64,000 nt of DNA, from IMG/VR virus record IMGVR_UViG_3300035698_011322, positions 1 to 64,000 of that record; one strand, given 5' to 3'. The DNA comes from a virus. Position numbers and translations under genes: made by a program. Each line of letters starts with the position of its first letter. Within the stretch, counting starts at the first letter, position 1. Shown here piece by piece: positions 1,571-62,489 of this stretch. The notes beneath the pieces were generated by a model. That model had not been told where the DNA came from. It saw only the letters and a list, made by a program, of their open reading frames with translations, and did not search any database.

Positions 1571-2005
1571 TTATAACCCCGTAGATCCAAATCCTTGTGA
1601 TCCTCTTTCTGTTGGTTCAAGTTCATCTACCTCAACTATCTTTGATATAAACACAGGTGATACAACGCCTTGGGCAATACGATCACCAGCCTTTATTATA
1701 AACAATTTCCCATCAGTTCTATTGTTACAAATAGGTATCTTTATCTCACCTATATATGAGTTATCAACAGTCCCAATACCGATTGCTATATAGTTTGGGT
1801 ATATTATTGATAGACCACTCCTTTGTCTTACTGTCATTTCATGCCCTGATGGTATCTTAAAAGCCAAGCCTGTTTTCACTATTTTCATTTCACCTGTGGA
1901 TATAAGGCAATCATGAGCTGAGGATAAATCAAATCCAATATCACCCATATAAGCATATTTCGGTATTTTAGCATTCTCATGTAATCTCTTGACAAGTATA
2001 TTCAT
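1571..2005 (-). CDS. dut: Trimeric dUTPase
   Basis: GFDL, RSGL, GTVDNSYIGEI, GDRIAQ, RGSQGFGSTG motifs. Confidence 0.97.
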   Translation of the reverse strand: MNILVKRLHENAKIPKYAYMGDIGFDLSSAHDCLISTGEMKIVKTGLAFKIPSGHEMTVRQRSGLSIIYPNYIAIGIGTVDNSYIGEIKIPICNNRTDGKLFIIKAGDRIAQGVVSPVFISKIVEVDELEPTERGSQGFGSTGL

Positions 2006-3375
2006 CTTCTAGTCCCCCCACCCCTTTGTTGTCTTCGTTGCTTTTGTGCTGCCTCTCGTTCATCACCAGATGTTGATCTATCACTTATCCATTCATCCAT
2101 TTCTGTCTCATCATACATTTTCAAACTTCTCGCATCATAGTATAATTTTGATATCTCACCCACTCTACCACCAAGTCTGTTCTTTACAATCTTATAAGTA
2201 AGTTCATTTTGATATATCATGTTGTCTTCATCAGTACCCAGAATTATCACCAAATCAGATGTAGCGGCGATTCCGAGGCTTTCGGCAATGTATGTAAAAT
2301 CAAGCTCCCGAAATCCAACGAATGATCCTTCTCTGTTTAATTGACTAACAGATACAACAGGAGATTCGAACTCAAAAGAAAGTGCTCTGAGTTCTTCTGA
2401 TATCCTTTTTATAGCCGAATACATATTACCTTCAACTTTATATGCTGTTTTCATAAGATTTATGTAATCAACATATATAATGCCTATCTTGATCCCCCGC
2501 ATTAGTAGTTCTCTCAGATATATCTTAAAGTCCAGTACAGATGCCTCACCTGTTGGGAATTGTTTAATGTATAATTCACCTCTATCCGTGTTGCCCTTTA
2601 GTTCTCTTAAAGAAGCTAGTAGTTTTTTCTTTGTATTAGCAACATTATACATTCTATTGATATCAAGCAATGAGTATATGGCATCAAATCTTTGAGCAAA
2701 TGCATTCTCTGACATTTCAAGTGTCATTAGAACTACATTATGACCACGAAGTACTTGTCGAGCAGCAATATTTGCCATAAACGAACTTTTGCTGCCATGA
2801 ATTCTAGCAGCAAAAGTTGATAGTGTAAATGGAGGAAATCCACCATTCAAATACTCATCCAGTTGTGGGAAATATGTTGGTATCCTTATGTCTACGGCAT
2901 TGAATATCTCTCTAAGTCGTTTGCCTAAGTCACCAAAATAATTTAAACCCAGATCGACCTTTATATCTTTGCTCAAAGCAGTTTCAATGATATTCTGTAT
3001 CTCGGCCCTACTCTCAGGATCGTCAACCTTATCAACAGAGGTAATGATAGCATTCTTTATTGCCTTCTCTTTCAAGTATTCATTTGTTTGAGTCAACAGA
3101 TGATCATAGTTTCTGTTTATATCATAATCAATTAGTTCAATGTCAGTCAGAGCCTCACTAATATCATCCTTATTGTCCCCAAATGAGTTTATGATTATAT
3201 CCTTCTGTGGTATATCCTTATACTCTGAGAAGTGATCTCTAACAAATTCAAATATATTAGAGCATGCAGAATCATTAAAATATTCTTTTTCGAACACAGA
3301 GGCAATCACTGCTAAATACTTCTTACTACTCAGCATTCCTTTCATTATCAGTTTTTCTAAAAATTCCGAATTCAT
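2002..3375 (-). CDS. Replicative DnaB-like helicase (T4 gp41-like)
   Basis: TLEMSE, IYVDYINLM, SQLNREG, KNRLGG; variant Walker A (ARIHGSKS); start placed at MNSEF after AAGG. Confidence 0.92.
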   Translation of the reverse strand: MNSEFLEKLIMKGMLSSKKYLAVIASVFEKEYFNDSACSNIFEFVRDHFSEYKDIPQKDIIINSFGDNKDDISEALTDIELIDYDINRNYDHLLTQTNEYLKEKAIKNAIITSVDKVDDPESRAEIQNIIETALSKDIKVDLGLNYFGDLGKRLREIFNAVDIRIPTYFPQLDEYLNGGFPPFTLSTFAARIHGSKSSFMANIAARQVLRGHNVVLMTLEMSENAFAQRFDAIYSLLDINRMYNVANTKKKLLASLRELKGNTDRGELYIKQFPTGEASVLDFKIYLRELLMRGIKIGIIYVDYINLMKTAYKVEGNMYSAIKRISEELRALSFEFESPVVSVSQLNREGSFVGFRELDFTYIAESLGIAATSDLVIILGTDEDNMIYQNELTYKIVKNRLGGRVGEISKLYYDARSLKMYDETEMDEWISDRSTSGDEREAAQKQRRQQRGGGTRR

Positions 3376-3400
3376 CCTTTCTTCCATAAACACTTGCCCC

Positions 3401-4240: not shown

Positions 4241-4894
4241 ATGAAATTATGTGATGTTGATTGGAAAAATATGAGAAAAACCGAAAGTGGTAACTTTAGA
4301 GATGTTGTAAAAAAGAAAACATCGAAATATATTGAATCATGTAAGAATTGTGGTGAACCATTTTTAAGACCATCTGGAAGTAAGTGTATATTTTGCAGCA
4401 GATCATGTTCTAAGGGTGGTGAAAATAATCCTATGTATGGCAGAAGTGGTGAGTTAAATCCTTTGTATGGTAAACACCATACAAAAGAAGCAAAGAAGAA
4501 AATGAGTGAACAAAAAAGTGGTGAAAATAATCCTATGTATGGCAGAAGTGGTGAGTTAAATCCTATGTATGGCAAAACTGGTGAGTTAAATCCTGCTTGG
4601 AGAGGTGGTTGTACTGACGACCCTTACTGCCCTATATGGACAAGTGATAAAGAGTTCAGACAATCAATAAGAGATAGAGATAATAATGAGTGCCAAAATC
4701 CAGATTGTTGGGGGAAAGACAAACGAATACATCTACATCATATCAACTATGATAAAATGGATTGCCATCCTGATAATATAATTACTTTATGTGGTAGTTG
4801 TAATGCAAGGGCTAATACTAAAAGAATATGGCATGAATCGTTTTATAATATGATATTAGAAGAACAAGGTAAATTATTAAAACAAGCGGCATAA
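4241..4894 (+). CDS. Free-standing HNH homing endonuclease with NUMOD3-like repeats
   Basis: Repeated GE(N/L)NP(M/L)YG, HHTKEAKKKMS, C-terminal HLHHINYDK..N..TLCGSCN. Confidence 0.88.
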   Translation: MKLCDVDWKNMRKTESGNFRDVVKKKTSKYIESCKNCGEPFLRPSGSKCIFCSRSCSKGGENNPMYGRSGELNPLYGKHHTKEAKKKMSEQKSGENNPMYGRSGELNPMYGKTGELNPAWRGGCTDDPYCPIWTSDKEFRQSIRDRDNNECQNPDCWGKDKRIHLHHINYDKMDCHPDNIITLCGSCNARANTKRIWHESFYNMILEEQGKLLKQAA

Positions 4895-4902
4895 GGATAT
4901 AA

Positions 4903-7392
4903 ATGAATAAAGAGGTAAGAATATCAAAGCACAACCTAATGCAAATCAAAATCAACACCGAGAGTGCTGAATATATTGCTGGCATGAAAGAGTTGTTTAC
5001 TCAGTATGTGGAGGGATTTCAATATACTCCTAAATTTCGTAGCGGAAGCTGGAACGGAAAAATTTGTTTAGTAAGTAGTCCACACAACACTCTACCCTAT
5101 GGACTGTTATTAGATCTTATAAAGTTTCATAAATTGCACTTCTCAAGTTTCCATTTATCTGTGGATGATGATGTTAAAGAGTTCTTCAAGGGCCCAGAGC
5201 TGAAGGTCAAGAATGATCTTTCACTCAAACCAAGATTCTATCAAAAGGAAAGTATACGAATATGCCTAGATAGAACAAAGGGTATCATTAGATCAGCAAC
5301 CGCTTGCCATGCAAAGGGTGATAAAATTATAATATTTGATGGATCTATAAAAAACATAGAAGATATAAAAATAGGTGACTTTGTAATTGGAAAAGATGGT
5401 AAACCAAAAAAAGTTATCAACGTTTTTAATGGTATCGATGATCTATACGAAATAGATCCAAAAAATAATAGAGAATCAATAACTGTAACAGGAAATCATT
5501 TATTACATTTAACCTTCACAAATCGTGGCGGAAAATATAATAAAAGATGGAACTCATTCGAAAATATTTCTGTTGAGGAATATTTAAATAAGAGTAAAAC
5601 ATATAAACATCAATCAAAACTTTATTATAATAAAGAAGAAATAAACTTTTCTCAGAAAAAAATTGATTGTAATCTTTCACCATATTTTATAGGATTGTAT
5701 TTAGGTGATGGTGGAAAAAATGTCTGTTCTGTATATAACATAGATGAAGAATGTATAAACGCTATTTATGAAGAAGCTGACAAATTTAATATGGAAGTTA
5801 TAACTAAGTCATATAGCAAATATGGTTATTTTATTAAAGGATCAAAAAACAAAAGAAATATAATATTCAACGAATTAGAAAAAATAGGAATTATATTTGG
5901 AAGAAAACAAATGTGCGCATGTGAGGATAGATTTATACCAAAAATAATATTTAACCAAAGTATAGATTATAAAAAAGAAGTTCTTGCTGGATTAATTGAT
6001 TCGGATGGATGTTTAACAAACAGAACATATTATGAATATTGTTCAAAATCAAAAAAATTATCTGATGATGTTAAATTATTATCTACTTCATTGGGATTGG
6101 TATGTTCAATGTCGATTAAAGTTGTAAATGATGTGGATTATTATAGAGTGGTAATAATGGGTGATATATTAAGAATACCTGTTAGAATAAAAAGAAAACA
6201 AAATGTTAAAAAATCAACAACAGATGCTTACAAAAGTGGATTCAATGTAAATTATGTTGGGAAAGGGGAATATTATGGCATCCAAGTAGAAGACTCTTTA
6301 TATTTAACAGATGGTGGTATGGTAACTCATAATTCAGGTAAATCACTAGTGATCTCATATATAATGAAAACTCTACTAGAGAACAAAAAGTCTGGTGTCA
6401 ATAGAGTATTATTATCAGTAACGAGAGCTGCACTAGTAGAGCAATTTTATAATGATATGCTAGAGTATGGTATACCAGATAAACTAATAGGTAGGGTGTA
6501 TACCAAAAGAAAAGAATGGGACACACCTATCACTATATCCACATGGCAATCATTAATGAATAATCATGATAAACTTCCTAACTATGATTGTATAATATGT
6601 GATGAGGTACATGGTGCGAAATCTCATGAGCTTAAGAAAATATTAGTCAAGGCAACCAAAGCTAACTATAGATTGGGGTTCACAGGCACACTCCATTCAG
6701 CCGAGCTTGACAACTGGAATACAAAATCGTATTTGGGGCCTGTGTTGAAAGAATACTCATCTGGCTTTCTAGCAGAAAAGGGATTCATAAGTAAATGTAA
6801 TGTCCATATATTAGGAGTAGAATATGAAGCTGGTGATGATATTAAAGGGGATTATAATGAGGTCAAAGATATTGTGTTCACTAATAAATACAGAATCAAT
6901 GTCATTAGTGATCTTATTAATAAGCTTGATCATAATGTTTTACTTCTAGTTGGGTTGGTAGAAAAAGAAGGCAAAGTTCTTCTGGACGAGCTGAAGAGTG
7001 TTAATAAAGAGGTGGTGTTTCTCTCAGGCAGGGATAGTGTTGAGGATCGAGAAAAGTGGCGGAATGAAATGGATAAACGAAATGATATTGCTCTGATTGC
7101 CACATATGGAATATTTGCTGAGGGTATAAATATTCCAAATTTGAAGTACACTATACTTGCATCCCCGTTTAAAGCAAAGATTAGAATACTTCAGTCAATT
7201 GGTAGGAACCTTCGGATGCATGAAAACAAAAAACATGGAGCACATATATTTGATATACATGACCATGTTAAGTATCTTGAGAAGCATGGGGATGTGAGGT
7301 ATAGGTTCTATGATAATGAGAAGTTCGGTATTAATGAATATAATCTAATAGAAGGAACTGAGTTCGATACATCACTTCTTAATCTGAAATAG
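4903..7392 (+). CDS. uvsW: UvsW-like SF2 helicase containing an intein
   Basis: Walker A split as SATA/SGKS, DEVH, GFTGT, QSIGRNLR. Confidence 0.92.
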   Translation: MNKEVRISKHNLMQIKINTESAEYIAGMKELFTQYVEGFQYTPKFRSGSWNGKICLVSSPHNTLPYGLLLDLIKFHKLHFSSFHLSVDDDVKEFFKGPELKVKNDLSLKPRFYQKESIRICLDRTKGIIRSATACHAKGDKIIIFDGSIKNIEDIKIGDFVIGKDGKPKKVINVFNGIDDLYEIDPKNNRESITVTGNHLLHLTFTNRGGKYNKRWNSFENISVEEYLNKSKTYKHQSKLYYNKEEINFSQKKIDCNLSPYFIGLYLGDGGKNVCSVYNIDEECINAIYEEADKFNMEVITKSYSKYGYFIKGSKNKRNIIFNELEKIGIIFGRKQMCACEDRFIPKIIFNQSIDYKKEVLAGLIDSDGCLTNRTYYEYCSKSKKLSDDVKLLSTSLGLVCSMSIKVVNDVDYYRVVIMGDILRIPVRIKRKQNVKKSTTDAYKSGFNVNYVGKGEYYGIQVEDSLYLTDGGMVTHNSGKSLVISYIMKTLLENKKSGVNRVLLSVTRAALVEQFYNDMLEYGIPDKLIGRVYTKRKEWDTPITISTWQSLMNNHDKLPNYDCIICDEVHGAKSHELKKILVKATKANYRLGFTGTLHSAELDNWNTKSYLGPVLKEYSSGFLAEKGFISKCNVHILGVEYEAGDDIKGDYNEVKDIVFTNKYRINVISDLINKLDHNVLLLVGLVEKEGKVLLDELKSVNKEVVFLSGRDSVEDREKWRNEMDKRNDIALIATYGIFAEGINIPNLKYTILASPFKAKIRILQSIGRNLRMHENKKHGAHIFDIHDHVKYLEKHGDVRYRFYDNEKFGINEYNLIEGTEFDTSLLNLK
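5305..6333 (+). mobile_element. Intein with LAGLIDADG endonuclease (343 aa) inserted in the uvsW Walker A motif
   Basis: Begins CHAKGD, ends THN followed by Ser; block B TGNH; GLYLGDG and LAGLIDSDG. Confidence 0.95.
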
Positions 7393-17811: not shown

Positions 17812-18696
17812 TTATATAAGATTAACTTCCGGGCCTTCAAAGTCAGTACTAATTTTCTCCATCTCCGACATCAAATCCATTTCCTCTTCTAATGTCTGTT
17901 CTTTAGAAAAATCAAGTTCTTCGATTTCAGCATCAATCTCTTCAACTTCAGCCTCTGTTAAAACAGTAGGCAAACCTGTTTTTAGATTTATATTACGAGG
18001 CACTTGTTTACCCATAAAAACACCTGGTTTAGACCATAATTCATTCTTAGCACGTGTATCCCATGACCCACCAGGATAGTTACTATAAACAACATTTGTA
18101 TCATATGTTTTTTTCTTAATTTTCTCTTTAGCGGCTTTAATAAAATCTTCTTTGTCCAAAATACATTCAGTTCTAATCTTCACAATACTCTCAATGATTT
18201 TATAAGCACCACATGGAGTTGCCCATCTTACATGACCATTTATACCATCTTTTGAAATACAAAGTGATATGTTATGATTCTGATTAATATACTTATCATC
18301 TGTCTGTGAAAATGAATTACCCATTGTATGGTGTGAATGTATAACACCAACTACTGGCAATTCATTAAACTCTTTACACATAATATTATCAACACTTCCA
18401 GTGCTTATCTCTTGATCTGGAATAAAGATATCAGTTATTTCAATAGTTTCACCAAAATCACCAAGAAGATAAGCCAACCACTCAATGTTTGAATATTCTT
18501 CCATAAGTGCTTCAATCTTTTCTTTTACCAATGGTTGAATCCACACAATAAGATTCTCAGGTGCCTTACCACAATCTGTTAAACACTCTACCTCGGTTTC
18601 CCAATAATCTGGTTCTTTATCAGAGGCAATAACATTGATTTTATTTTGTACATGCATATTATTTTTCCCTTTCTTCTTTCTATTCCTTCTTGACAT
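17812..18696 (-). CDS. JAB/MPN+ metalloprotease (Ubl processing/deconjugation)
   Basis: EWLAYL...IHSHHTMGNSFSQTD (E...HxH...S..D). Confidence 0.88.
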   Translation of the reverse strand: MSRRNRKKKGKNNMHVQNKINVIASDKEPDYWETEVECLTDCGKAPENLIVWIQPLVKEKIEALMEEYSNIEWLAYLLGDFGETIEITDIFIPDQEISTGSVDNIMCKEFNELPVVGVIHSHHTMGNSFSQTDDKYINQNHNISLCISKDGINGHVRWATPCGAYKIIESIVKIRTECILDKEDFIKAAKEKIKKKTYDTNVVYSNYPGGSWDTRAKNELWSKPGVFMGKQVPRNINLKTGLPTVLTEAEVEEIDAEIEELDFSKEQTLEEEMDLMSEMEKISTDFEGPEVNLI

Positions 18697-18706
18697 TTTT
18701 ATTCCT

Positions 18707-19285
18707 TTATATATACAATTCAATAAGATTTGTGCTAATTTCTTTATCATAGTATTTCATTATTTTATTATCAGTAAGAGCGGCTATAATACTAGCAGGA
18801 ACAACCCATGATGAAATTTCAGTATATCCATCTTCAGCTTCTCCCCACTCGGCCACTCTATTATTGATAGAAATATGTTCACCATTATACCCCGCCTTAA
18901 CATATTTCGCACCAATGTTGTCAGCAATTCCTTGATTTGTCATTTGTGATTTTATATTATCAGTACAATCGACAACCCAATCTGTTTTCTCAGATGTCAA
19001 TTCAGAATACTTAAACGGAAAACTATGAATTGTACAATCGGGTCTAATGGACTCAACCATCATTCTTACAACATCCGTTTTATTTTTCCCAATAAACTTT
19101 AAAGGAATATCTATTCTATTAAGATTATGAGCCTCAAATATATCTGGGTCCCATACACATATATTGTCTATACCTGATAAAACAGCAAACTTTGATACCC
19201 AGAACCCAATTCCACCAACGCCACATACGCTTATACTTATATTCTGATTTAATTTTAAACTTTCTTGACGATCATAAAATGACAT
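18707..19285 (-). CDS. Minimal ThiF/E1 adenylating enzyme
   Basis: YDRQ, GVGGIG, DPD.FEAHNLNR, K, VDCTDN; no CxxC pairs. Confidence 0.9.
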   Translation of the reverse strand: MSFYDRQESLKLNQNISISVCGVGGIGFWVSKFAVLSGIDNICVWDPDIFEAHNLNRIDIPLKFIGKNKTDVVRMMVESIRPDCTIHSFPFKYSELTSEKTDWVVDCTDNIKSQMTNQGIADNIGAKYVKAGYNGEHISINNRVAEWGEAEDGYTEISSWVVPASIIAALTDNKIMKYYDKEISTNLIELYI

Positions 19286-21784: not shown

Positions 21785-22696
21785 TCATACTATTTTACCA
21801 TATATCATATCAACAACCATGTGCATAAAATTTATTTCTTTTATATCTGATATAGCATTTCTATGTAAATGCTCACCTATCATTAGAATAGCACCACCTG
21901 GTTCTTTGAACTCACCCGCGTTCTCAAATAGATAACTATATAGCTCTGTATAATCGATATAATTTGATTTGAGAATTTGTCGTACAGTTTCAATATCCTT
22001 TAGTGTGATACCTCTTAATATCTTATCCCATACACCCTCTGACTTTGATAGTCTACTGCCAATCAAAACACCATCAATACAATTTTCTTGTAGAACATTA
22101 ATAGTTTTTCGTATGTCTGGATAGCATTTCTCAACAATAGTTTTTATATGAGCAACACTTTCCTTGGTAAGTTTTATCTTCTCACTCCTTAAGATCTTCA
22201 AACAAAACTTAGCTATATCAGGCTTAGGTGGGTTCTCTACCTTCAACACAGTGAAACGTGATCTCAGTTCTGGAATAACATACCTATCATAATTACACAG
22301 AAGAACAAATCTAGTAATCTTTTGTACGTCTTCCATCATTTGTCTTAGCATCTTTTGGGCACCCTGTGGGCCTGAGGATAATGAGTCGCCCTCATTTAGA
22401 ACAACAATTTTCATATCCCCATGAGAGGCCATAGATGTAGCAAACCGCCTAACCTTATCTCTCATTGTATCTATACCTGTTTCATCAGAAGCATTAATCC
22501 ACAGTTTAGGTAAGGCTGACTGCTCCAAAAGTATATGGGCAAAGGTACCTTTGCCAATACCAGGACTACCATACAACATTATGTTTGGTAATTCTATAAT
22601 AAACTTTCTAAACCTTTTTCTTATATCTTCATTTAGAACCATATCATCTATAGATTTTGGTTCATATCGAAATGACCAGATTGATTTACTATTCAT
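21785..22696 (-). CDS. Clamp loader AAA+ subunit (gp44/RFC-like)
   Basis: W..RYEPKSIDDM, GSPGIGKGT, INASDETGID, SRF, YPDIRKTIN. Confidence 0.93.
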   Translation of the reverse strand: MNSKSIWSFRYEPKSIDDMVLNEDIRKRFRKFIIELPNIMLYGSPGIGKGTFAHILLEQSALPKLWINASDETGIDTMRDKVRRFATSMASHGDMKIVVLNEGDSLSSGPQGAQKMLRQMMEDVQKITRFVLLCNYDRYVIPELRSRFTVLKVENPPKPDIAKFCLKILRSEKIKLTKESVAHIKTIVEKCYPDIRKTINVLQENCIDGVLIGSRLSKSEGVWDKILRGITLKDIETVRQILKSNYIDYTELYSYLFENAGEFKEPGGAILMIGEHLHRNAISDIKEINFMHMVVDMIYGKIV

Positions 22697-23169
22697 TATA
22701 TACACTCTATACATTTTATTTTATTTGGTTCTGTTTCTATACCATCATTACAACAAGGTCTTTCACAACTATCATCGTGTATATGTGACTTTATATGCAT
22801 GCAATCCTGAAACTCACAATTTTCGGCCTCTATACATTTCACCACAGTTTTTTTTTCATCTATTGTTTCTATTTTTACCGAATCAATTCCACCACTACCC
22901 ATAACAACATTCACATCTGCTGTTCTCCGCACATCATCTTTTAGTTGAAGACTCATATCATACTCAATATCATTCATAGCATCTTCAATAAGATTCTCAA
23001 CTTGATTTAAAATATCTGATATGTTACCACCTATTTTCTTCTCCATCTTTTGTAAGAATAATAAATACTCATCTTTGTCCATAGAAGATTCCAATTCTTT
23101 TTTGAACTCATAATTCTTAATGCCATACAAAAAATACTTACAAAATAACCTTTTGAGAATTTTTTTCAT
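22696..23169 (-). CDS. Hypothetical protein, Cys/His-rich C-terminus
   Basis: 157-aa ORF with RBS. Confidence 0.65.
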   Translation of the reverse strand: MKKILKRLFCKYFLYGIKNYEFKKELESSMDKDEYLLFLQKMEKKIGGNISDILNQVENLIEDAMNDIEYDMSLQLKDDVRRTADVNVVMGSGGIDSVKIETIDEKKTVVKCIEAENCEFQDCMHIKSHIHDDSCERPCCNDGIETEPNKIKCIECI

Positions 23170-23703: not shown

Positions 23704-23793
23704 TGGCGGAAGAGGAGAGGATTGAACTCCCACCGGCTTTTACACCGTAGCGCCTTAGCAGGGCGTTCCAATACCAATTATGGTTACTCTTCC
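23704..23793 (-). tRNA. tRNA-Ser(GCT)
   Basis: Cloverleaf, long variable arm, CCA. Confidence 0.9.
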
Positions 23794-23799
23794 ATTTTT

Positions 23800-23872
23800 T
23801 GGAGCGACTTGGGGATTTGAACCCTACCTTCCCGCTGGACGCAAGACGTGCTGCCAATTACACCATCGCCGC
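23800..23872 (-). tRNA. tRNA-Gly(TCC), atypical G33
   Basis: GCG..CGC-T-CCA acceptor; loop CG-TCC-AG. Confidence 0.75.
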
Positions 23873-24298
23873 TTATACTATCCTTATTAGGTTTCCATCA
23901 TAGTTCTTACCTAAATGTCGTTCTACTTTTCTTAAAGTATCTTCTGTACCACCTTTTCTATCAGGTGACACACAGGCTATAACTATTGTATTTGGCTCTG
24001 ATTCTCTTGCAACAACTGTATTTCTTTCGTAGAACCATTGTGCCCATTTATGTCTTGGTGAATATTCTACTGGTTTCTTTTCTGGATCGGGTCTATGAAT
24101 TATTAGCTTTCCATTTGATTCTGTTAGGTTCATCTTTCTAGCAATGATTTCAGCAAACCGATCCCCACCCTTTGGGCAACCGCCAGAAATAATCACATCA
24201 CCTTTATCATACCATTTCTTGAACTCATTATAAACTTGATGGTAATCGGAAGGATTGTTTCTTCTTCTAGATCCAATGATAATTATCTTCTTAGACAT
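23873..24298 (-). CDS. SLOG-family (YspA/DprA-like) protein
   Basis: IIGSR, ISGGCPKGGD, RN, GGTEDT. Confidence 0.8.
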   Translation of the reverse strand: MSKKIIIIGSRRRNNPSDYHQVYNEFKKWYDKGDVIISGGCPKGGDRFAEIIARKMNLTESNGKLIIHRPDPEKKPVEYSPRHKWAQWFYERNTVVARESEPNTIVIACVSPDRKGGTEDTLRKVERHLGKNYDGNLIRIV

Positions 24299-35705: not shown

Positions 35706-35792
35706 GATTTTCGATTCCTTTCAATTTTTTCTTGATTATAAAAATATTGTAACACAGAAAATGTTTTATGTAAACCACTTATTCTAGAGCAT

Positions 35793-35821
35793 AAAAAATG
35801 GGGATTCTAAGGATATCCCCA
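35793..35821 (-). terminator. Intrinsic terminator
   Basis: TGGGGAT...ATCCCCA followed by T6 on minus strand. Confidence 0.75.
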
Positions 35822-35846
35822 AAGCCTGTCGGGTCACAGCAGACAA

Positions 35847-35974
35847 CACTGGGTGATTTCGGTTCTAGCTTGATTTAAGTGAGTGAACCTGGCATGACCT
35901 ACAATGCTCACTGGGTGATTTCGGTTCTAGCTTGATTTAAGTGAGTGAACCTGGCATGACCTACAATGCTCACT
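35847..35974. repeat. Exact tandem duplication of a 62-bp non-coding unit
   Basis: Copies start at 35847 and 35909. Confidence 0.95.
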
Positions 35975-36001
35975 ATCCGAATCCAATAATTAGGGGGTTC
36001 A

Positions 36002-36175
36002 TTACCCTATGGTAATGAACTCAAAGTCATTGAATTTCAGGTTATCGCTCATGCGAATCATATTGCGGACGAACTTTTCAGCCTTGAAACGAGCGGAGAA
36101 AACGCGGGCTTTGGAAGTGGATTTGGAAGCTACAAGAACACGACCTTCTTTAATAACAATAGTGGATTTTGCCAT
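36002..36175 (-). CDS. 57-aa basic early protein
   Basis: Manual translation MAKSTIVIKEGRVLVASK...FEFITIG; AAAGGAG RBS; promoter 36212-36240. Confidence 0.8.
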   Translation of the reverse strand: MAKSTIVIKEGRVLVASKSTSKARVFSARFKAEKFVRNMIRMSDNLKFNDFEFITIG

Positions 36176-36256
36176 GATATAATCTCCTTTGATTTTTTAT
36201 TGAACTGTTTTAATATAACCCATTGTATCGCCAATGTAAATGCCTAATGTTTTAAT

Positions 36257-36499
36257 TCATATAAAAAACAACTCTTCTTCTAATTCAAACTCATTATATA
36301 ATTGAAACCTATCATCCATATATCCTTGACCAGTGCAATCCCCTTCTAATGTAATACTATGAGGTCTAGTAGATTTAACAACTACATATGTATACTCAGA
36401 AAAAAGCCAATCCAGATGTTTAATAAAATCATCAATCCATGCCGGTCCGGTAAAACAGATATTCTGTACTACTTTATCTCCAACTTCAAATTTACTCAT
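36257..36499 (-). CDS. Hypothetical protein
   Basis: GAGGGG RBS; resembles 3401..3667 at both ends. Confidence 0.65.
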   Translation of the reverse strand: MSKFEVGDKVVQNICFTGPAWIDDFIKHLDWLFSEYTYVVVKSTRPHSITLEGDCTGQGYMDDRFQLYNEFELEEELFFI

Positions 36500-36549
36500 A
36501 TCAACCCCTCATGTAACGTTTTAATTTTGTTTTTCTCTCGACTGAAACC

Positions 36550-37067
36550 ATACTAACAACCTTGAACCGACTTGTAAATCATAAATAAAATTTTAAGAAT
36601 AATTAAAAAATATGGCTAAATGAATGTATAACTTCTCACCTTATTTAATTCGCTTCTGAAACCATACTTTCCAATTGAAATTGGTTGTAACGTTTTGATT
36701 TTGTTTCGTTTTTGACCGTACCAACGTTGGAGTTTGTTTAAATTGTTTTTGTTTTATTTTCCGAAGAAAATTTGGTAGGAAAATCAAGGGTTTACTAAAC
36801 GTCTTAAGCCGTTTTTCAACTCTTCCAATGTTTTATGACATCGGCTACCCGAACTGTTTTAATATAATTCATTGTATCGCCAATGTAAACGCCTATGGTT
36901 TTTTCTTTAATTAACTCATAGGGTAAAAATTTAGATTCTTAAATGAAATCGGTGGTTTATATAACCAAAGTTTCGGGCAGAATCGACATCTTTGTAAAAT
37001 GTTTTTAATATAATTTATTTTTCCTCTCGACTGAAACTATAATACCAAATTCCACCCACAATGTAAA
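36550..37067 (-). promoter_or_regulatory. Battery of leftward early promoters
   Basis: TTTACA-N17-(TAGTAT/TATATT/TATTAT) with -35 boxes at 36573, 36884, 37062. Confidence 0.7.
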
Positions 37068-37144
37068 TCATAAAATTATCTCCAATAAAATCAGATCCTT
37101 ATATAATCCTATGGGTTTTCAAGAGAAAATCGAATCAGGATTTT

Positions 37145-37660
37145 ACTCAAAATATCGATTCTGGGCAACTCAGGTGACGCTGGTTGGGTCAAAAAACATT
37201 TCGAATGTTATGGGTCGCGTTATGGAATCAAATATTTTCTGTGGTCTAATATCAATATCCTTAATGATGTCAGGGTGTTATCCTATATAATTATATGCCG
37301 CAACAGTATCCTCAATGATTTCTGGGGTTTATGTGTGCAGTGTTTTACCACAGTGACCTACCCGATGCATGCCTCATATTAGGGGCACTTATGCTCTACC
37401 TGAGGCACAGTGCCCAACTTGAGGCACAGTGCCACCTACCTGAGGCACAAAATGTGCAGTGAAATCCTGCACCTTTTATCCAATGATCTCAGGGAATTAT
37501 AACGTGTCATATAATTATACATGGCAAGGCCCTGATTTTATTGGAGATATTGATAATGGATCGATTTTCTGGTCGTGATTCCATAACGGCCCATTATATC
37601 TCTTTTGGATTTTAACCCACCAGAATTGACCTGAGTTGCTCTGAGGGTATATTTTGAATG
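37145..37660. repeat. ~500-bp imperfect inverted repeat with central TGAGGCACA direct repeats; candidate origin
   Basis: Mirror blocks 37165-75/37629-39, 37218-30/37576-88, 37286-97/37508-19 all centre on ~37402. Confidence 0.8.
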
Positions 37661-37716
37661 TACTTTCAGGAGGTTATGGTGATCCAAATATGCCCCAAAA
37701 TTTTTAATATGAGGCG

Positions 37717-37935
37717 GTTTACATCTGAGTCAAAAATTGGTAGAATGGTTTTGTGGTTGGGAGATTTACCCCGACCCATGTGTCTCAAAAAACAAATTAA
37801 TATGAGACAGTTTACAATCGAGTTAAAAATTGTTATAGTGTACGTGTTGTTCGGAAATTGTTTTTAAAAACGGAAATGGTTTTAAAAATTGTTTGAAAAT
37901 TGTTCGTTTACAAGTTAGTTCAAAGTTGTTAGAAT
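37717..37935 (+). promoter_or_regulatory. Three tandem rightward early promoters
   Basis: GTTTACA-N17-TAGAAT/TATAGT at 37717, 37810, 37906. Confidence 0.8.
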
Positions 37936-37979
37936 GTGTTTATTGAGTGAGTAAATTGTTAAAGAAATTGTTAACTAAA

Positions 37980-38605
37980 TAGTCTTGTAATCTTGGCCGA
38001 TTGGCGGTTAATAGTCCTGTGAAGAAAAACACCTAGCGCTGGGTGCAAAGTAACAGGTTAAATTGGGATGGCTAGTTCTTCAAACCTTTAAAAACCCTTG
38101 AGTCGCGACTCAAGGAACCGATTGAAATTCAAAACAAATTGATATACTCGACAGCAAACGTGATGGTTAGTCGCAACAAGTACTAGCTAGGCTAATAGCG
38201 GACTATATTGATCTTTGGGTTAACATTATCGGATATTAAAATCCCAAGTGGGGATATTGTTTAGGGAATTAACCTGGTTAGATATTCCTTCTTGTAAGGT
38301 CGGTGGCGTGGCATCGAATAATAAAATAATCCACGACGCTTTAATAATGATACCCCAGTCCTACAGATAATGCTTCTGAAATAAGAGTATATGGCCGCAT
38401 GGTGAAACAATATCGCTGGGGGATTTACAATTTTATTGGTTCCAGTGGATTAAATGCAACGGATTCAGACCGTTCAGCCAATAATGAATTAAACATATGA
38501 TCTAAAACCCTGTATCACCTATCACCTAATAGGTGGGAAACCTACAAGCAAGAGGTATAGAAAAGGGTATTCGTCTGTTAAAATCAGAAGAGATCATATA
38601 AATTT
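37980..38605 (+). ncRNA. Candidate large structured ncRNA (~620 nt), family unknown
   Basis: No ORF >=60 aa; many helices and long-range complementarities; triple promoter. Confidence 0.55.
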
Positions 38606-38676
38606 TTATTCGTGTACAATGGTAAATGATTGTGTTATTCTTAATATTATTAACTACAGAAGGGAGTAACTCTCAA

Positions 38677-38925
38677 ATGGCAAGATATGACCGTAGTAAA
38701 GACATTGCGGTTTTTGAAAGAACGATAGGTGATGAAATCAACAAATCGCTTAAAGTGTCCGTAATGTCCTATAATGATGGAGAAAGAAAACTCCAGATTG
38801 GCCCCCGTACTTATATTAAACGCAATAGGTCCACTGGTTACGGCAAAGCAGGTCGCATGACCCTTGATGAAGTAAAGTCAATCACAGACCTTATGCCTGA
38901 AATCGAAGGTGCAATGAACGCTTAA
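38677..38925 (+). CDS. PC4/YdbC-like ssDNA-binding protein
   Basis: VSVMSYNDGERKLQIG.R...GKAGRMTLDE; GGGAG RBS. Confidence 0.65.
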   Translation: MARYDRSKDIAVFERTIGDEINKSLKVSVMSYNDGERKLQIGPRTYIKRNRSTGYGKAGRMTLDEVKSITDLMPEIEGAMNA

Positions 38926-39010: not shown

Positions 39011-39379
39011 ATGAAAATAACACATGATAGATTTAATAGGACAGTGTGGGCTATTAAGAAAGACTTTACAGGAGCGCTGGCTAAGTACTTAGTAATACAA
39101 TCACCGTATACCGTGCCAGAGAACCTATCAACGTGCATAGAGAAATTCGACCAGAAGCTTGACAAACTGGCATCATTTGACACCAATGGAATGGCTGAAA
39201 TCTCTTTGTTGGGGTTAACCGCTAATGTAAATTCAATCCTTGAAAGCATCCCCGAAATAATGGCTTTGAACGAGCCAAACGATGATTTTATAGACATCCT
39301 GGCGGTAGCTCAAAACATAACCTGTGCATTCGCAGAGGAAGCAGAGTCTCAATGTTATCGGGAACACTGCATGGGCTGA
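39011..39379 (+). CDS. Hypothetical protein
   Basis: 122-aa ORF. Confidence 0.65.
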   Translation: MKITHDRFNRTVWAIKKDFTGALAKYLVIQSPYTVPENLSTCIEKFDQKLDKLASFDTNGMAEISLLGLTANVNSILESIPEIMALNEPNDDFIDILAVAQNITCAFAEEAESQCYREHCMG

Positions 39380-40041: not shown

Positions 40042-40338
40042 ATGAATAAGAAAGGATTGACGAATTTCGTAGCAGAGGAAGCAGGGATTACTAAAAAGGA
40101 CGCTAACGCACTGATCGGTGTGGTTCTGGATGGTGTCACCAGCGGTATTACTACCGATGGTAAAGTGACCCTGGTTGGTTTCGGGACATTTTCAGTAGTG
40201 ACCAGGAACGCCCGTATGGCTCGGAACCCACGGACTGGGGAAGCGATTTCGGTTCCTGAGAAAACGGTTCCGAAGTTCAAACCGTCCAAGAAACTGAAGG
40301 AAGCTACCCTCGGTTTCGAGGCACCTGCCGCAGAGTAA
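40042..40338 (+). CDS. hup: HU-family DNA-binding protein
   Basis: GFGTF, RNPRTGE, PKFKPSKKLK. Confidence 0.96.
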   Translation: MNKKGLTNFVAEEAGITKKDANALIGVVLDGVTSGITTDGKVTLVGFGTFSVVTRNARMARNPRTGEAISVPEKTVPKFKPSKKLKEATLGFEAPAAE

Positions 40339-41795: not shown

Positions 41796-41869
41796 GGTTC
41801 CATCGTCTAATGGTAGGACACCAGACTTTCGATCTGAGAATCGGGGTTCGATCCCCCGTGGAATCGCCA
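41796..41869 (+). tRNA. tRNA-Glu(TTC)
   Basis: Cloverleaf, TTCGA, CCA. Confidence 0.92.
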
Positions 41870-41918
41870 AATTCACCCCGCGAAGAGGGTGTTGAAATAA
41901 TATCTTCGACAAACATAT

Positions 41919-41993
41919 CGCCGAGAAGGCTTGGGGTAAGCCCCTGGTTTTGGGTACCAGTAGCTGTGAGTTCAACTCTCACCTCGGCGACCA
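41919..41993 (+). tRNA. tRNA-Pro(TGG)
   Basis: CTGGT-TTTGGGT-ACCAG, CCA. Confidence 0.88.
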
Positions 41994-42001
41994 ATTTTTA
42001 T

Positions 42002-42078
42002 GGTGGTTGTGGCGAATTGGTAAACGCGATCGGTTGTGGCCCGATTATTAGTGGGATCGTTACCCACCAATCACCCCA
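42002..42078 (+). tRNA. tRNA-His(GTG)
   Basis: G-1:C73, anticodon GTG, CCA. Confidence 0.88.
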
Positions 42079-53217: not shown

Positions 53218-53940
53218 ATGAGAAAAATTTTAATGAGTTTAACGATTTTAATGTTAGGAATGTTTTTAGTAGTTGGGAATGTGTCAGCGTTAGCAATTAA
53301 TTCCGATTCAACAATGTCTACAGAAGGTGTGATATATAATGAATCAAATGCTGAGACATTGGTTTTGAATGATGTTGATCAAGCTGATATGCATGCTTAT
53401 TTTATATTAGAGCTAGCAGGTTGGTCTGGTCAAAATGTATTTGGGATTTATGGTATTTCAGAAGATGGTAATGGTAATGCTCTTGCACCTAGTTCAAATC
53501 AAATGCTTTCTTTATTTGATGGCGTGGAGGGTACATATTCAGTTAGTATTAAATTTGATCTAGTTAATGATCAAGCATGGAGAGTGGATAATCCAACAGA
53601 TGTTAAAGATATAGGAATGGAATTTGGTTTGTATCTTGATTCATCAGCTACAATAAGTAATCTATCAGGTATTTTCTTTTCACAGAATGATCTTAATATT
53701 AATTCACATGACTATTTTTGGATCTATGATGTGTCTAATGGTATTTCAACAGAGATCGGTGGATATGAGACTGTTGTAGCAATGGAAGATCAATTGTTTG
53801 GTGGTGGGGATAATGATCATAATGACTTGGTTGTTGGTATTACTGATGCGTCGCCAGTACCCGAGCCAGCAACAATGCTACTATTAGGAACAGGATTGCT
53901 TGGATTTGTATCTATAGGTAGAAGAAAATTTAAAAAATAA
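53218..53940 (+). CDS. PEP-CTERM-sorted surface protein (DUF4114-like)
   Basis: Signal peptide; EDQ.FGGGDNDHND; VPEPATMLLLGTGLLG...RRKFKK. Confidence 0.92.
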   Translation: MRKILMSLTILMLGMFLVVGNVSALAINSDSTMSTEGVIYNESNAETLVLNDVDQADMHAYFILELAGWSGQNVFGIYGISEDGNGNALAPSSNQMLSLFDGVEGTYSVSIKFDLVNDQAWRVDNPTDVKDIGMEFGLYLDSSATISNLSGIFFSQNDLNINSHDYFWIYDVSNGISTEIGGYETVVAMEDQLFGGGDNDHNDLVVGITDASPVPEPATMLLLGTGLLGFVSIGRRKFKK

Positions 53941-55282: not shown

Positions 55283-57133
55283 ATGAGTGAACTGAATAAA
55301 CTGATCGAATATGATAATTTGTATTATAATGAAGGAACGTCGCCTCTTGATGATGGCGAGTATGATAATCTAAAGAAAGAACTCAAATTAAAGTTTCCTG
55401 ACGATCTATATTTTACTGAGGTAGGAAGTCAGGTAAAAAATAATGGAAAGGTGAAACTCAAGTATACACTAGGTTCGCTCAATAAAGTCAAACTTGATAC
55501 ATTACAGAAATGGCTTGATAAGCAGACATCTGATATTTTTATCATAAGTGAAAAAATGGATGGTGTGTCTTTTTATGTGAACTATAAAAATAAAGAAGTG
55601 GTGTCTGCATCAACAAGGGGTGATGGTAGTTATGGTCAAGATATAACTGATAAAGCTAAGGTTTTTTGTGGCCCTATAAAAACAAATAAAGATTCATGGT
55701 TTCGATGTGAGGCAATGCTTGTTGGATCAAAAATCAATGAACAACTTGGTTTCAAAACAAGAAGAAATGGCGTTGCTGGTATTATAAATCGTGATGGTTT
55801 AAAAAATGTAGAACACATTACACCATTTTTCTATGAACTACTAAATTATGATGAAATACTTCCAGACTCAGATGAAATAGGAAGATTTGATTTTATGAAT
55901 GAAGTTGTGGATATGGGTAGCTCTAAAAATTTCATACCTTTGTTTTTTATATACAACAAGAATAATCACACAACAGCAGATATCATAACATTTTATGATA
56001 AAATGAAAGAAAAGAATGCATATGATATAGATGGTCTTGTTATAACACCAATTGACTATAAAAGAGAGAATGTCCTCTACCCTAAGAATAAAGTAGCATT
56101 TAAAATCAATGAAAAACCCATTAATGTCGTTGTGAAAGAAGTAATGTGGAGTGTTACAAGAACAAGTAGAGTGGTTCCATTAATTAATATCGAGCCTACT
56201 GAAATTCAAGGTGTTACTATTTCTAAGGCAACGGGATTTAATGCAAAATATATTGTTGACAATAATATAGGTAAAGGATCTATTGTAAAAATTATTAGAT
56301 CGGGGGATGTTATACCCACAATAGTTGGTGTTCAGAAGGAATCCAATCCTTATTTACCAACAAAATGCCCAGCCTGTGGTGCTGATCTGGTATGGGAAAG
56401 TGTTGATCTAAAATGTACCAATGATGATTGTTGGCGAAAATCATATAAAGAACTTGAGCACTTTCTCAGAGCAATGGGCGCCGAGAACATAACAGAGAAA
56501 ACACTCATGAAGCTCGGTGTGTCTCACATTGAAATGTTATATGAGATCGATGAGTGGAGTATTTCAACTATGGAAGGATTCGGTGTAAAGAGAGCACAAC
56601 AAATAATAGACGAGATACAAGGAACATTGTTTTCAACACCCGAAACACTACTAAGATCATTTGGTATAAAGAATATTGGCAAATCATTATCAAGAGATAT
56701 AACAAAACATTTGTACAGAATATCCGATGATGATAATACAGTAATGGAATATATATTTTCATTGCCATATGAAGAACTAATAAAAATTGAAGGAATCGGA
56801 GAAAAAATTGCTGAAGTATTTGTTTCGGAGATAAATAAACATAGATGGAAGTATGATTTTCTTAAAAGTGTTGGTTTGGTCTTTTCAAACGAAAACGAAA
56901 CAGGAAAGTTTGATGGAATGAAATTTACTTTAACAGGGAAGGGGAGTTTGGGAAGAAATGAAATTCGGACTCTTATTGAACGTAAGGGTGGTTTGGTCAA
57001 GGGTATTAGTAAAACTACTAACTATCTTGTTGTTGGTGATATAAATACAACAACTAGTAAGGCTAAAAAGGCTAGAGAATATGGTGTAGAAATTATCATA
57101 TATGAAGATCTGATGAAAATGTTAGGAGTATAA
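55283..57133 (+). CDS. ligA: NAD-dependent DNA ligase
   Basis: YY...D.EYD, EKMDG, TRGDG, DGLVI, RSGDVIP, Zn finger, BRCT. Confidence 0.96.
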   Translation: MSELNKLIEYDNLYYNEGTSPLDDGEYDNLKKELKLKFPDDLYFTEVGSQVKNNGKVKLKYTLGSLNKVKLDTLQKWLDKQTSDIFIISEKMDGVSFYVNYKNKEVVSASTRGDGSYGQDITDKAKVFCGPIKTNKDSWFRCEAMLVGSKINEQLGFKTRRNGVAGIINRDGLKNVEHITPFFYELLNYDEILPDSDEIGRFDFMNEVVDMGSSKNFIPLFFIYNKNNHTTADIITFYDKMKEKNAYDIDGLVITPIDYKRENVLYPKNKVAFKINEKPINVVVKEVMWSVTRTSRVVPLINIEPTEIQGVTISKATGFNAKYIVDNNIGKGSIVKIIRSGDVIPTIVGVQKESNPYLPTKCPACGADLVWESVDLKCTNDDCWRKSYKELEHFLRAMGAENITEKTLMKLGVSHIEMLYEIDEWSISTMEGFGVKRAQQIIDEIQGTLFSTPETLLRSFGIKNIGKSLSRDITKHLYRISDDDNTVMEYIFSLPYEELIKIEGIGEKIAEVFVSEINKHRWKYDFLKSVGLVFSNENETGKFDGMKFTLTGKGSLGRNEIRTLIERKGGLVKGISKTTNYLVVGDINTTTSKAKKAREYGVEIIIYEDLMKMLGV

Positions 57134-61529: not shown

Positions 61530-62489
61530 ATGTCCAAATGGATTTCAAAAGATTTGTTTAACGACTTTCAGAAAGAAAAGAAAGCCGAGGCTGACAAGCC
61601 AAATGATTATGGTATGCGAAGAAGTGAAATTATATGGGAAACACCAGTAAAAGGTACACAAGAAAAACCTAAAACTTATGAGGGCCGATTTTTACCAGAT
61701 ATAGATGGTGGTTTTTATAAAAAGTACTCATACCATATGTTCAAAAGTGGTGAAAAATGGATGTTTATACTATGTCCGAAAACATATAATTTTGAAAATT
61801 ATTGTCCACTATGCTCCGCTACTTCTCAATTGTACCAAGGAACAGCAGCTGATAAGAAAATGGCATACAGTTATAAGAGAAAAGAAAAGTTCGTTAGTAA
61901 TTTCTTTCTTGTAAATGATCCCAGGGATGCTGAAAGAGAAGCAGAGAACAAAGTAAATGGTAAGGTCAAATTGTATGAGTTTCCTGGTAAAGTAGAAATG
62001 AAACTCAAGAACGAAATAACCGATACTAAAGAAGGGTATGGTTATTTGATATTTGATCCAGGTGAAGAAGGTCACAATTTCATTCTAAAAGTATTGGCAA
62101 CAAAGCAAGATACAAATGGAAACATATGGCCTGATTATGCTTCATCATTATTTTCAAGAAGTTCGGAGCCAATAGGCACAGAAGGCGATATTGATAAAAT
62201 AATGGAATCAAGAATCAATATTACTGAGTATATCAAGACACTTGAAAAGACAGATGATGAAATTGTTCAAATTTTAAAAGCTGAAATGTTATGGGATTTG
62301 GTCGAAGATGAGTGGAACAGATATAAGAACGTTCAAGAAAAGACAACAGTAAAAGTAGAAGAGGATGATATTGATGATTCACAATGGAGTGATGACACTA
62401 CTCCAGAAGAGAAAGATCAAGGAACTGAGAAAGAAACTGATCAGGAATTAGATGATGAAGAATTATTACGAGAATTAGAGGATATGTAG
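61530..62489 (+). CDS. Single-stranded DNA-binding protein (gp32-like)
   Basis: RFLPD, H..C...CPLC, V.DP...NGKV, NF.LK, acidic tail. Confidence 0.9.
   Translation: MSKWISKDLFNDFQKEKKAEADKPNDYGMRRSEIIWETPVKGTQEKPKTYEGRFLPDIDGGFYKKYSYHMFKSGEKWMFILCPKTYNFENYCPLCSATSQLYQGTAADKKMAYSYKRKEKFVSNFFLVNDPRDAEREAENKVNGKVKLYEFPGKVEMKLKNEITDTKEGYGYLIFDPGEEGHNFILKVLATKQDTNGNIWPDYASSLFSRSSEPIGTEGDIDKIMESRINITEYIKTLEKTDDEIVQILKAEMLWDLVEDEWNRYKNVQEKTTVKVEEDDIDDSQWSDDTTPEEKDQGTEKETDQELDDEELLRELEDM

Follow-up and report, generated by a model that had tools for sequence, protein, structure and literature searches.

The 64,000-nucleotide (nt) stretch of viral DNA analysed here, referred to as the window, makes up the first 64 kb of a contig of 74,657 bp (IMG/VR record IMGVR_UViG_3300035698_011322) that has no terminal repeats. 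Our subject is a mirror-symmetric, non-coding element in this stretch, hereafter the hub, from which the genes of the window diverge. As the original prediction had claimed, minus-strand genes lie to the left of the locus and plus-strand genes to the right: all genes left of ~36.5 kb are on the minus strand, except for an island at 4.2-7.4 kb, and all genes right of ~38.6 kb are on the plus strand. The 2.1-kb gap between the two gene arms, the window's only strand switch, contains no credible open reading frame (ORF). It holds an imperfect inverted repeat that spans roughly 515 bp around an axis at 37402-37403 and is flanked by outward-pointing promoters.

The window encodes a replisome of the T4 type, with a gp41-like helicase, a gp32-like single-strand-binding protein (SSB), a clamp loader and a UvsW-like helicase. 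DNA searches of a phage collection and protein comparisons found no close cultured phage, and the sequencing runs that contain the phage DNA are salt-lake metagenomes, with no RNA run listed among them. A candidate host would be a low-G+C bacterium of saline sediments that uses sigma70-type promoters. Because related contigs of 22-132 kb score 16-66% complete in CheckV, the whole genome is probably ~150-240 kb.

The inverted repeat and its flanks

The claim that several exact mirror blocks share an axis at ~37402, with spacers of preserved length, was borne out: all four blocks are present and a fifth was found beyond them (Table 1). The axes of the blocks fall between 37402.0 and 37403.0, and the spacers of the two arms therefore differ by no more than 2 nt. 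When the left half is aligned locally, with gaps, to the reverse complement of the right half, the score is 55, compared with 18.3 +/- 2.0 for shuffled sequences; with the axis slid along all of the contig, scores average 19.6 +/- 3.3 and the next-best unrelated locus reaches 34. By this gapped score, the repeat, which is single-copy in the 74.6 kb, is the strongest mirrored locus of the contig. It does not stand out by an ungapped, fixed-axis symmetry score, which misses it because of 1-2-nt indels. Single-strand folding of 526 nt yields z = -7.8, as expected for any inverted repeat.

Misassembly, which had been named as a finding that could undo the repeat, found no support. Independent Logan contigs from four salt-lake runs, assembled at depths of 2-4, reproduce positions 36995-37317, 37316-37608, 37420-37625 and 37457-37873 without joints, and collapse of a repeat is implausible because the arms share only ~65% identity.

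The centre between the arms is not mirrored. The repeats that had been reported there, at 37401, 37420 and 37441 with an inverted TGCCTCA at 37370 (37370-37376), were reproduced at exactly these positions. The direct repeats of TGAGGCACA are spaced by 19 and 21 nt, and these three exact matches, all in the centre, are the only ones in the 74.6 kb; the first two units include the palindrome GGCACAGTGCC. Thus, the centre carries the three phased direct repeats that are the minimum for an iteron array, and its TGAGGCA half-sites form both a palindrome and direct repeats about two helical turns apart.

In agreement with the earlier report of promoters pointing both ways, a consensus scan found five leftward and three rightward promoters. 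These outward early promoters run into DNA of 72-85% A+T. The centre has 53-60% G+C, compared with 80-90% A+T in the tracts of the promoter zones. Candidate unwinding DNA comprises these tracts and the A/T-only 10-bp palindromes at 37286 and 37510, which lie in longer A/T-rich stretches.

Behind the three tandem rightward promoters, there is an ORF-free stretch of ~650 nt (37942-38602). Its distal part, 38496-38602, is 83-91% identical to segments found at other positions in two distant relatives (L134 9218-9318, L205 7338-7405), which suggests a conserved RNA or cis element.

Table 1. Positions of the features of the window
Feature	Position	Strand	Remarks
Left arm of the imperfect inverted repeat	37146-37297		blocks TCAAAATAT, GCAACTCAGGT, CTGGTTGGGTC, CGTTATGGAATCA, ATCAATATC with motif-A site, TATAATTATATG
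Right arm	37508-37658		mirror of left arm, block order kept; ~63-67% identity
Mirror block GCAACTCAGGT	37165 paired with 37629		axis 37402.0
Mirror block CGTTATGGAATCA	37218 paired with 37576		axis 37403.0
Mirror block TATAATTATATG	37286 paired with 37508		axis 37402.5
Mirror block ATCAATATC	37251 paired with 37546		axis 37402.5
Fifth mirror block TCAAAATAT	37147/37649		axis 37402.0
A/T-only palindrome TATAATTATA	37286-37295	strandless	inside surrounding stretch TATAATTATAT
Mirror copy of palindrome TATAATTATA	37510-37519
Non-mirrored centre	37298-37507		210 nt; most G+C-rich part of the gap
Degenerate palindrome TGCCTCATATTAGGGGCA	37370-37387		in centre
Iteron-like array, three (C)TGAGGCACA(G) units	37401-37449	+	units at 37401, 37420, 37441
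Hairpin in centre	37454-37472		T-run after it, to 37480
Leftward sigma70-like promoter battery (TTTACA-N17-TAnnAT)	35746-37067	-	-35 starts 37067, 36889, 36578, 36240, 35774
Rightward battery, three tandem promoters	37718-37935	+	37718, 37811, 37907; 93- and 96-nt repeat units
Motif-A site, left promoter zone	36932-36960	+	17.0 bits
Motif-A site	37074-37102	+	23.1 bits; AATCAG-ATCC-TTA, perfect WATCAR-N4-TTR
Motif-A site, left arm	37253-37281	+	30.3 bits; TATATAATTATATG follows
Inner-left motif-A site	37304-37332	+	29.5 bits
Inner-right motif-A site	37472-37500	+	15.9 bits; oriented like inner-left
Motif-A site, right arm	37524-37552	-	32.8 bits; mirror partner of 37253-37281
Conserved early protein, locus marker	38674-38925	+	83 amino acids
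Phage IHF/HU-family DNA-bending protein, candidate motif-A binder	40042-40338	+	98 amino acids; Pfam Bac_DNA_binding, E 1.4e-30
gp41/DnaB-like helicase	2002-3393		30% identity to cyanophage T4-like primase-helicases
UvsW-like helicase	4903-7392	+
Clamp loader	21785-22714
NAD-dependent ligase	55283-57133
gp32-like SSB	61530-62489

Relatives and recurring motifs

Homologous loci were gathered from metagenomes and IMG/VR by means of the 83-amino-acid marker protein, and 12 relatives, with marker identities of 44-78%, were compared with the window. All 12 have outward TTTACA-N17-TAnnAT batteries around a promoter-free core, mostly of 0.5-0.9 kb and up to 1.9 kb. Where inverted repeats in the relatives are significant, the distance from their axis to the marker gene downstream is 1.0-1.7 kb, and in L131 the mirrored region reaches nearly 1 kb. 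Hence, the prospect that the blocks would lack conservation in relatives, raised earlier as grounds for abandoning the interpretation, is clearly dispelled. Other routes to relatives gave nothing: querying the phage collection with DNA of the region, in near as well as distant modes, found no match; the flanking small proteins (122, 80 and 248 amino acids) have no relatives in IMG/VR; an exact 15-mer of the centre and 19-mer of an arm have only unrelated chance matches there; and DNA comparison of 33-42 kb with five related fragments found no match.

Two of the relatives, L125 (923-2141) and L128, can be aligned to the window over the full length of the repeat, with ~72% identity. Orthologous arms (0.81 for the left and 0.70 for the right arms of the window and L125) are more similar than paralogous arms (0.59-0.63), and the duplication therefore predates the divergence of these three lineages. 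Conservation is block-wise: CAGGT, CTGGTTGGGT, TTATGGAATCA, TCAATAT, AATGATnTCAGGG and TATAATTATAT are kept, the last without variation in any of the six arms that the three alignable genomes provide, and the spacers between the conserved blocks have diverged in sequence and kept their length. Outside this trio the arms cannot be aligned, yet two motifs still persist. A coding role of the ORFs in the arms (59, 49 and 43 amino acids) was rejected, given that substitutions are spread evenly over codon positions (10/11/12) and orthologues contain stops and frameshifting indels. Ends of a transposon or a miniature inverted-repeat transposable element (MITE) were likewise discarded, as the element is present once in the 74.6 kb and its syntenic position is shared by the 12 relatives.

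Motif A, a site of ~30 nt with the consensus tcAATAT-N5-AATGATTTCAGGGgnTTA (54 sites), is the commonest block of the hub. Searched for as AAT[GA]A[TA]nTC[AG]GG with at most one mismatch, it occurs at 2.3-7.8 per kb in the core and 0-0.7 per kb outside in all 12 relatives, an enrichment of 20-70x. When the window's own sites are left out of its construction, a weight matrix for the motif has seven matches of at least 12 bits in the 74.6 kb, six of which lie inside 36932-37552. The inner sites are often trailed within 3-4 nt by GTGCCTCA. In another relative, G006, the matrix matches three times in 80 kb, and two of these sites, at 79908(+) and 80404(-), face inward, symmetric about an axis at 80156. 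We also considered motif A as a genome-wide promoter class, with an AATGAT box 17 nt upstream of TATAAT, and rejected it: clustered occurrences are confined to the hub.

Sites of the IHF type carry an A/T-rich tract about one helical turn upstream of the core, and so does motif A. The consensus for IHF binding is WATCAR-N4-TTR, printed as WATCAANNNNTTR (PMC10380432), and the motif-A core, wTTCAG-N4-TTA, has its spacing and letters. Among the 54 motif-A sites, 16 match this consensus perfectly and 26 with one mismatch, and the most frequent departure from it is T for A at position 2. In 48 of the sites, TTR is found at precisely the expected distance, even though the search pattern did not include it. 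Perfect matches to the consensus reach 3.8 per kb in 36931-37720, as against 0.23 per kb contig-wide.

A candidate binder is encoded nearby, 2.6 kb to the right of the repeat. For this 98-amino-acid IHF/HU-family protein, the highest-ranking NCBIfam models are those for IHF beta and IHF alpha, neither of which reaches its curated cut-off, and matches in the PDB include IHF, HU and SPO1 TF1 (TF1 chains 1exe and 1wtu). Every relative with a motif-A array that extends past the marker gene has the corresponding gene, at 60-95% identity and on the marker's strand (L128 ends before its position); the gene is absent from more distant marker-bearing loci without a motif-A array. From this co-occurrence, we infer that the protein may bind motif A. 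The window has one gene of this family and G006 has two (83952-84239 and 87305-87562).

Motif B is the TGAGGCA half-site, and in 7-8 of the 12 relatives the homologous centre is enriched in it. The motif is restricted to the core in the window and in L125, L131, L133, L134 and L205, and enriched there in L204. Across the family, it takes the form of a palindrome, TGCCTCATATGAGGCA, and of direct repeats, and the number of units in the array varies, from three in the window to at least six in L125. Such variation in copy number between close relatives resembles the behaviour of iterons. Central repeats of other lineages differ: CGGAGGATCG is found in L138 and G006, and GGTGTTGATA in G006. Three relatives have a 16-nt tandem unit (TGCGCCTCCGTTTGGA-like) in 4-5 copies at the centre of the hub (L131 463-575, L133 3771-3900, L204 3598-3715), where the window has the TGAGGCACA repeats alone.

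Taken together, the arm identities, the block-wise conservation, the non-coding arms and the locus-specific motifs uphold the proposal of the original prediction that these are symmetric protein-binding sites rather than a recent duplication. On this comparative sequence evidence, the hub is very probably a conserved, symmetric, protein-binding cis element and neither a duplication nor an artefact.

Origin and alternative roles

The best explanation of these observations appears to be that the hub is the core of a conserved, single-copy, non-coding nucleoprotein complex at the point where both gene arms diverge. As for its function, the reading that we favour is the architectural core of a bidirectional replication origin, with T4 oriE and iteron- and IHF-dependent origins as its nearest known counterparts; we adopt it tentatively and would assign it somewhat less than an even chance. 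Under this model, the phage IHF/HU-family protein, or host IHF, would bend the DNA at five or six sites, a second protein would occupy the TGAGGCA repeats, and the folded complex would serve as the organising core of the origin. Initiation would most plausibly resemble that at oriE, oriF and oriG of T4: transcripts from the outward early promoters, together with trapped negative supercoiling, would open the A/T-rich DNA beside the hub, and the outward transcripts would prime two diverging leading strands. What commends the model is the combination, at a single divergence point, of iteron-like repeats, bending-type sites and flanking A/T-rich DNA with strong predicted promoters.

In T4, oriE, oriF and oriG lie at points of transcriptional divergence with compositional shifts, and oriE requires an early promoter and contains direct repeats at even spacing, with the RNA of an R-loop priming one leading strand (PMC3016281). 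The hub is similar in that it belongs to a phage with a T4-type replisome, lies at a strand switch with a shift in skew and has promoters that run into A/T-rich DNA; as at oriE, an iteron-like array is associated with strong early promoters, which here flank it. However, there is no sequence homology to the T4 origins, which lack large mirror symmetry and an array of IHF sites, no genes like repEA or repEB were recognized here, and a replication role of the oriE repeats is unproven in T4 itself.

Theta origins that use iterons and IHF, such as pSC101 ori, R6K gamma ori and P1 oriR (and, for the iteron logic, lambda ori), combine phased repeats, bending sites and A/T-rich DNA, and Rep operators share a half-site with iterons, as an inverted pair and as direct repeats, respectively. 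The hub has all these traits, namely phased direct repeats, IHF-type sites, A/T-rich DNA and half-sites in both inverted and direct arrangement. It departs from these origins in having no adjacent Rep- or O-type initiator gene among the ORFs scanned and no DnaA boxes, in having five or six IHF-type sites rather than one or two, and in its G+C-rich centre and ~500-bp symmetry. The origin of the Vibrio cholerae satellite PLE, which was proven by peaks of read coverage and by deletions (PMC7145576), is, like that of ICP1, comparable in layout, a kilobase-scale non-coding region between divergent operons with several repeat families. PLE differs in having a cognate RepA_N initiator that binds semi-palindromic iterons, for which no counterpart was recognized among the ORFs scanned here. 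The hub is distinguished by mirror symmetry that is both long and conserved, by an IHF/HU homologue encoded by the phage and by its T4-type replisome context.

Comparison of gene order among the relatives adds a further line of evidence. The 24-41 kb segment of the window, hub included, is inverted relative to G006 (40-120 kb, L120-L123), and the distal arms keep their order; the breakpoints in the window are at ~23.5 kb and 41-43.6 kb, near tRNA genes at 23704-23873 (minus strand) and 41796-42078 (plus strand). Two configurations emerge once the helicase and ligase are located in four further records, G011-G014. The window and G011 have marker and ligase together on one side of the axis; in G013 and G014, these two genes are on opposite sides; G012 has its helicase on the marker's side; and G006 combines a ligase opposite the marker with a helicase on the marker's side. 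In every configuration, all genes point away from the axis. Inversions about an axis are seen around bacterial origins, so that axis-preserving inversion lends some weak support to an origin; it is weak because any symmetric divergent promoter hub would also tolerate such inversions.

Several results weigh against the origin model. The centre is G+C-rich and is not an unwinding element. Between 36500 and 38600, there is no exact DnaA box (TTWTNCACA), and boxes with one mismatch number 4 compared with 7.3 expected. The inflection of cumulative GC skew that had been proposed as a check is present, with a minimum at 37109, but it carries no independent origin signal because the skew tracks gene strand: coding-strand skew is 0.27 in the counter-oriented genes at 4241-7392 and 0.24-0.26 in co-oriented genes, and third-position skew is 0.18 versus 0.27-0.29, with a standard deviation of ~0.2. 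No initiator, Rep or O-like gene was found with PHROGs, Pfam and NCBIfam among ~55 ORFs scanned within the 64 kb of the window, where many small ORFs remain without annotation. The assignment of the bending sites to IHF is putative and made by consensus matching. Moreover, T4 uses several origins that share no common motif, and a T4-type phage therefore need not have one elaborate origin. Finally, among 106 mirror pairs in the three alignable sequences, 55 are invariant and 12 have changed on both sides, which is not above the 9.0 +/- 1.9 of shuffles (matched in 45 of 500). The symmetry is therefore kept by sequence conservation of each block and not demonstrably by base-pairing, a pattern that fits protein sites better than a hairpin or cruciform.

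The main competing view, not mutually exclusive with an origin, is that the hub controls early transcription, with an IHF/HU-like early protein and a TGAGGCA-binding factor wrapping the DNA between the batteries. Such a complex would activate, insulate or later shut off early transcription, in the manner of SPO1 TF1 or the IHF site of Mu; TF1 has been proposed to act at early promoters, and the Mu site lies between Pe and Pc. The element is located exactly between strong outward early promoters in every relative, its neighbours are typical early or anti-defence genes, including one with a Tad5 match (E 3.8e-23), and the candidate binder, which matches the structure of TF1, is itself the product of an early gene located downstream of the rightward battery. 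The parallel with TF1, which is listed as a phage HU-like protein (PMC6606824), thus extends to a protein of this family made early, with sites in a region crowded with strong early promoters. Yet the sites of the hub lie between the batteries and fit the IHF consensus, unlike those of TF1, which overlap promoters, and TF1 prefers hydroxymethyluracil DNA. None of the -35 and -10 elements is overlapped by a motif-A or TGAGGCA site, and 50-170 bp separate the arms from the starts of the closest strong promoters. Because the contig's other early promoters lack motif A, it is not a general promoter-associated operator, and five or six bending sites with further blocks over 0.6 kb exceed the needs of known regulators of divergent promoters. 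We regard control of early transcription as possible but rather doubtful.

The remaining explanations appear less plausible still. A packaging site (pac- or cos-like), a genome end or an injection signal would account for a single-copy, conserved, repeat-rich non-coding region with IHF-type sites, given that P1 pac and lambda cosB use IHF and that T5 has repeats and palindromes in its first-step-transfer DNA; strong early promoters are also common near genome ends in large phages. We consider such a role unlikely. The contig has no terminal repeats and the contigs of the four runs have no breaks or joints at the hub, although both checks, made on assembled sequence, are weak; the part of the window near the hub has no terminase gene; and headful packaging, which needs no site, is the usual mode of T4-type phages. 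The T5 repeat regions (iss) are in a terminal repeat with paired DnaA boxes, neither of which was found here. The arms, ~65% alike, differ from true inverted terminal repeats, and the centre is not the perfect palindrome that a protelomerase site requires; a protelomerase target (telRL) or inverted terminal repeats were accordingly rejected, with arms 63-67% identical and no protelomerase or terminal-protein gene matched. The arms might also be recombinase-binding ends, as in Mu, Tn7 or invertible promoters, that flip the centre or the early segment, and both the binding-site-like blocks in inverted arms with IHF-type sites and the occurrence of the central 17-kb early segment in two orientations among relatives would suit such a switch. 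It is nevertheless highly improbable: no recombinase or transposase gene was recognized in the window, the contigs of the four runs contain no alternative joints, the breakpoints lie well outside the arms, and the element, being single-copy and syntenic, is not mobile. We give equally little credence to a small structured RNA that would start at the TATAAT of an arm, the arms being promoter regions, and end at the hairpin in the centre. Each arm has a perfect inward TATAAT, the hairpin with its T-run (37454-37480) is suitably placed, and the centre has fold z-scores of -2.4 and -2.6 on the two strands, but these are modest, and the palindromic half-sites account for them. A -35 element is lacking, and Rfam yields no credible family, the sole hit being a chance match to mir-290 (E 0.52); with no curated match and covariation not above shuffles, the centre does not qualify as a structured-RNA family. 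It is also the least conserved part, its length and repeat content shifting between close relatives, and the centres of L138, L139, L146 and G006 hold different motifs.

Returning to the origin model, we can state it in a bolder form, which is speculative and which we judge to be more probably wrong than right. An uncultured, habitat-wide lineage of T4-type phages might build a single mirror-symmetric origin complex with its own IHF homologue between divergent early promoters, such that two outward transcripts prime two forks, and the symmetry might make the early segment freely invertible, explaining the two genome configurations. To our knowledge, origins have been mapped in very few lytic phages and, among the relatives of T4, in T4 alone. 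If true, T4 would no longer be the only T4-like phage with a defined origin architecture, and the IHF/HU-family protein would be a virus-encoded architectural protein dedicated to the virus's own origin. Whatever its function, the hub offers a compact target: it measures ~0.8 kb, its boundaries are clear, two of its motifs are defined, and a candidate binder is encoded nearby. It is also conserved across many metagenomic phages of saline and sediment habitats. The family-wide motif is a practical marker for the hub, and hence for genome orientation, in fragmentary metagenomic contigs.

Other genes and elements of the window

Just to the right of the hub, a 122-amino-acid early protein (39011-39379, plus strand) matches Pfam Tad5 (E 3.8e-23), an inhibitor of type I Thoeris, and points to a possible anti-defence early module on this side. 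For the 83-amino-acid marker, identification as a PC4-like single-strand-binding protein was considered and found no support in profile searches of Pfam, PHROGs, NCBIfam and the PDB. The sole counter-oriented island of the left arm (4241-7392, plus strand) consists of a NUMOD3 homing-endonuclease-like gene followed by the UvsW-like helicase, which has the same orientation in G006. The window contains 19 tRNA genes.

On the minus strand at 17812-19285, proteins with a JAB domain (Prok-JAB) and of the ThiF family (E1-like) are encoded side by side, a pairing reminiscent of the ubiquitin-like conjugation and deconjugation modules of defence and counter-defence. A phage protein with a DUF4114 domain (53218-53940, plus strand) carries a C-terminal PEP-CTERM sorting motif, which may hint at an exosortase system in the host. 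Two near-identical tandem units of ~70 nt at 35834-35973, downstream of a basic 57-amino-acid ORF (36002-36175), translate as a repeated ORF, MSIVGHARFTHLNQARTEITQ.

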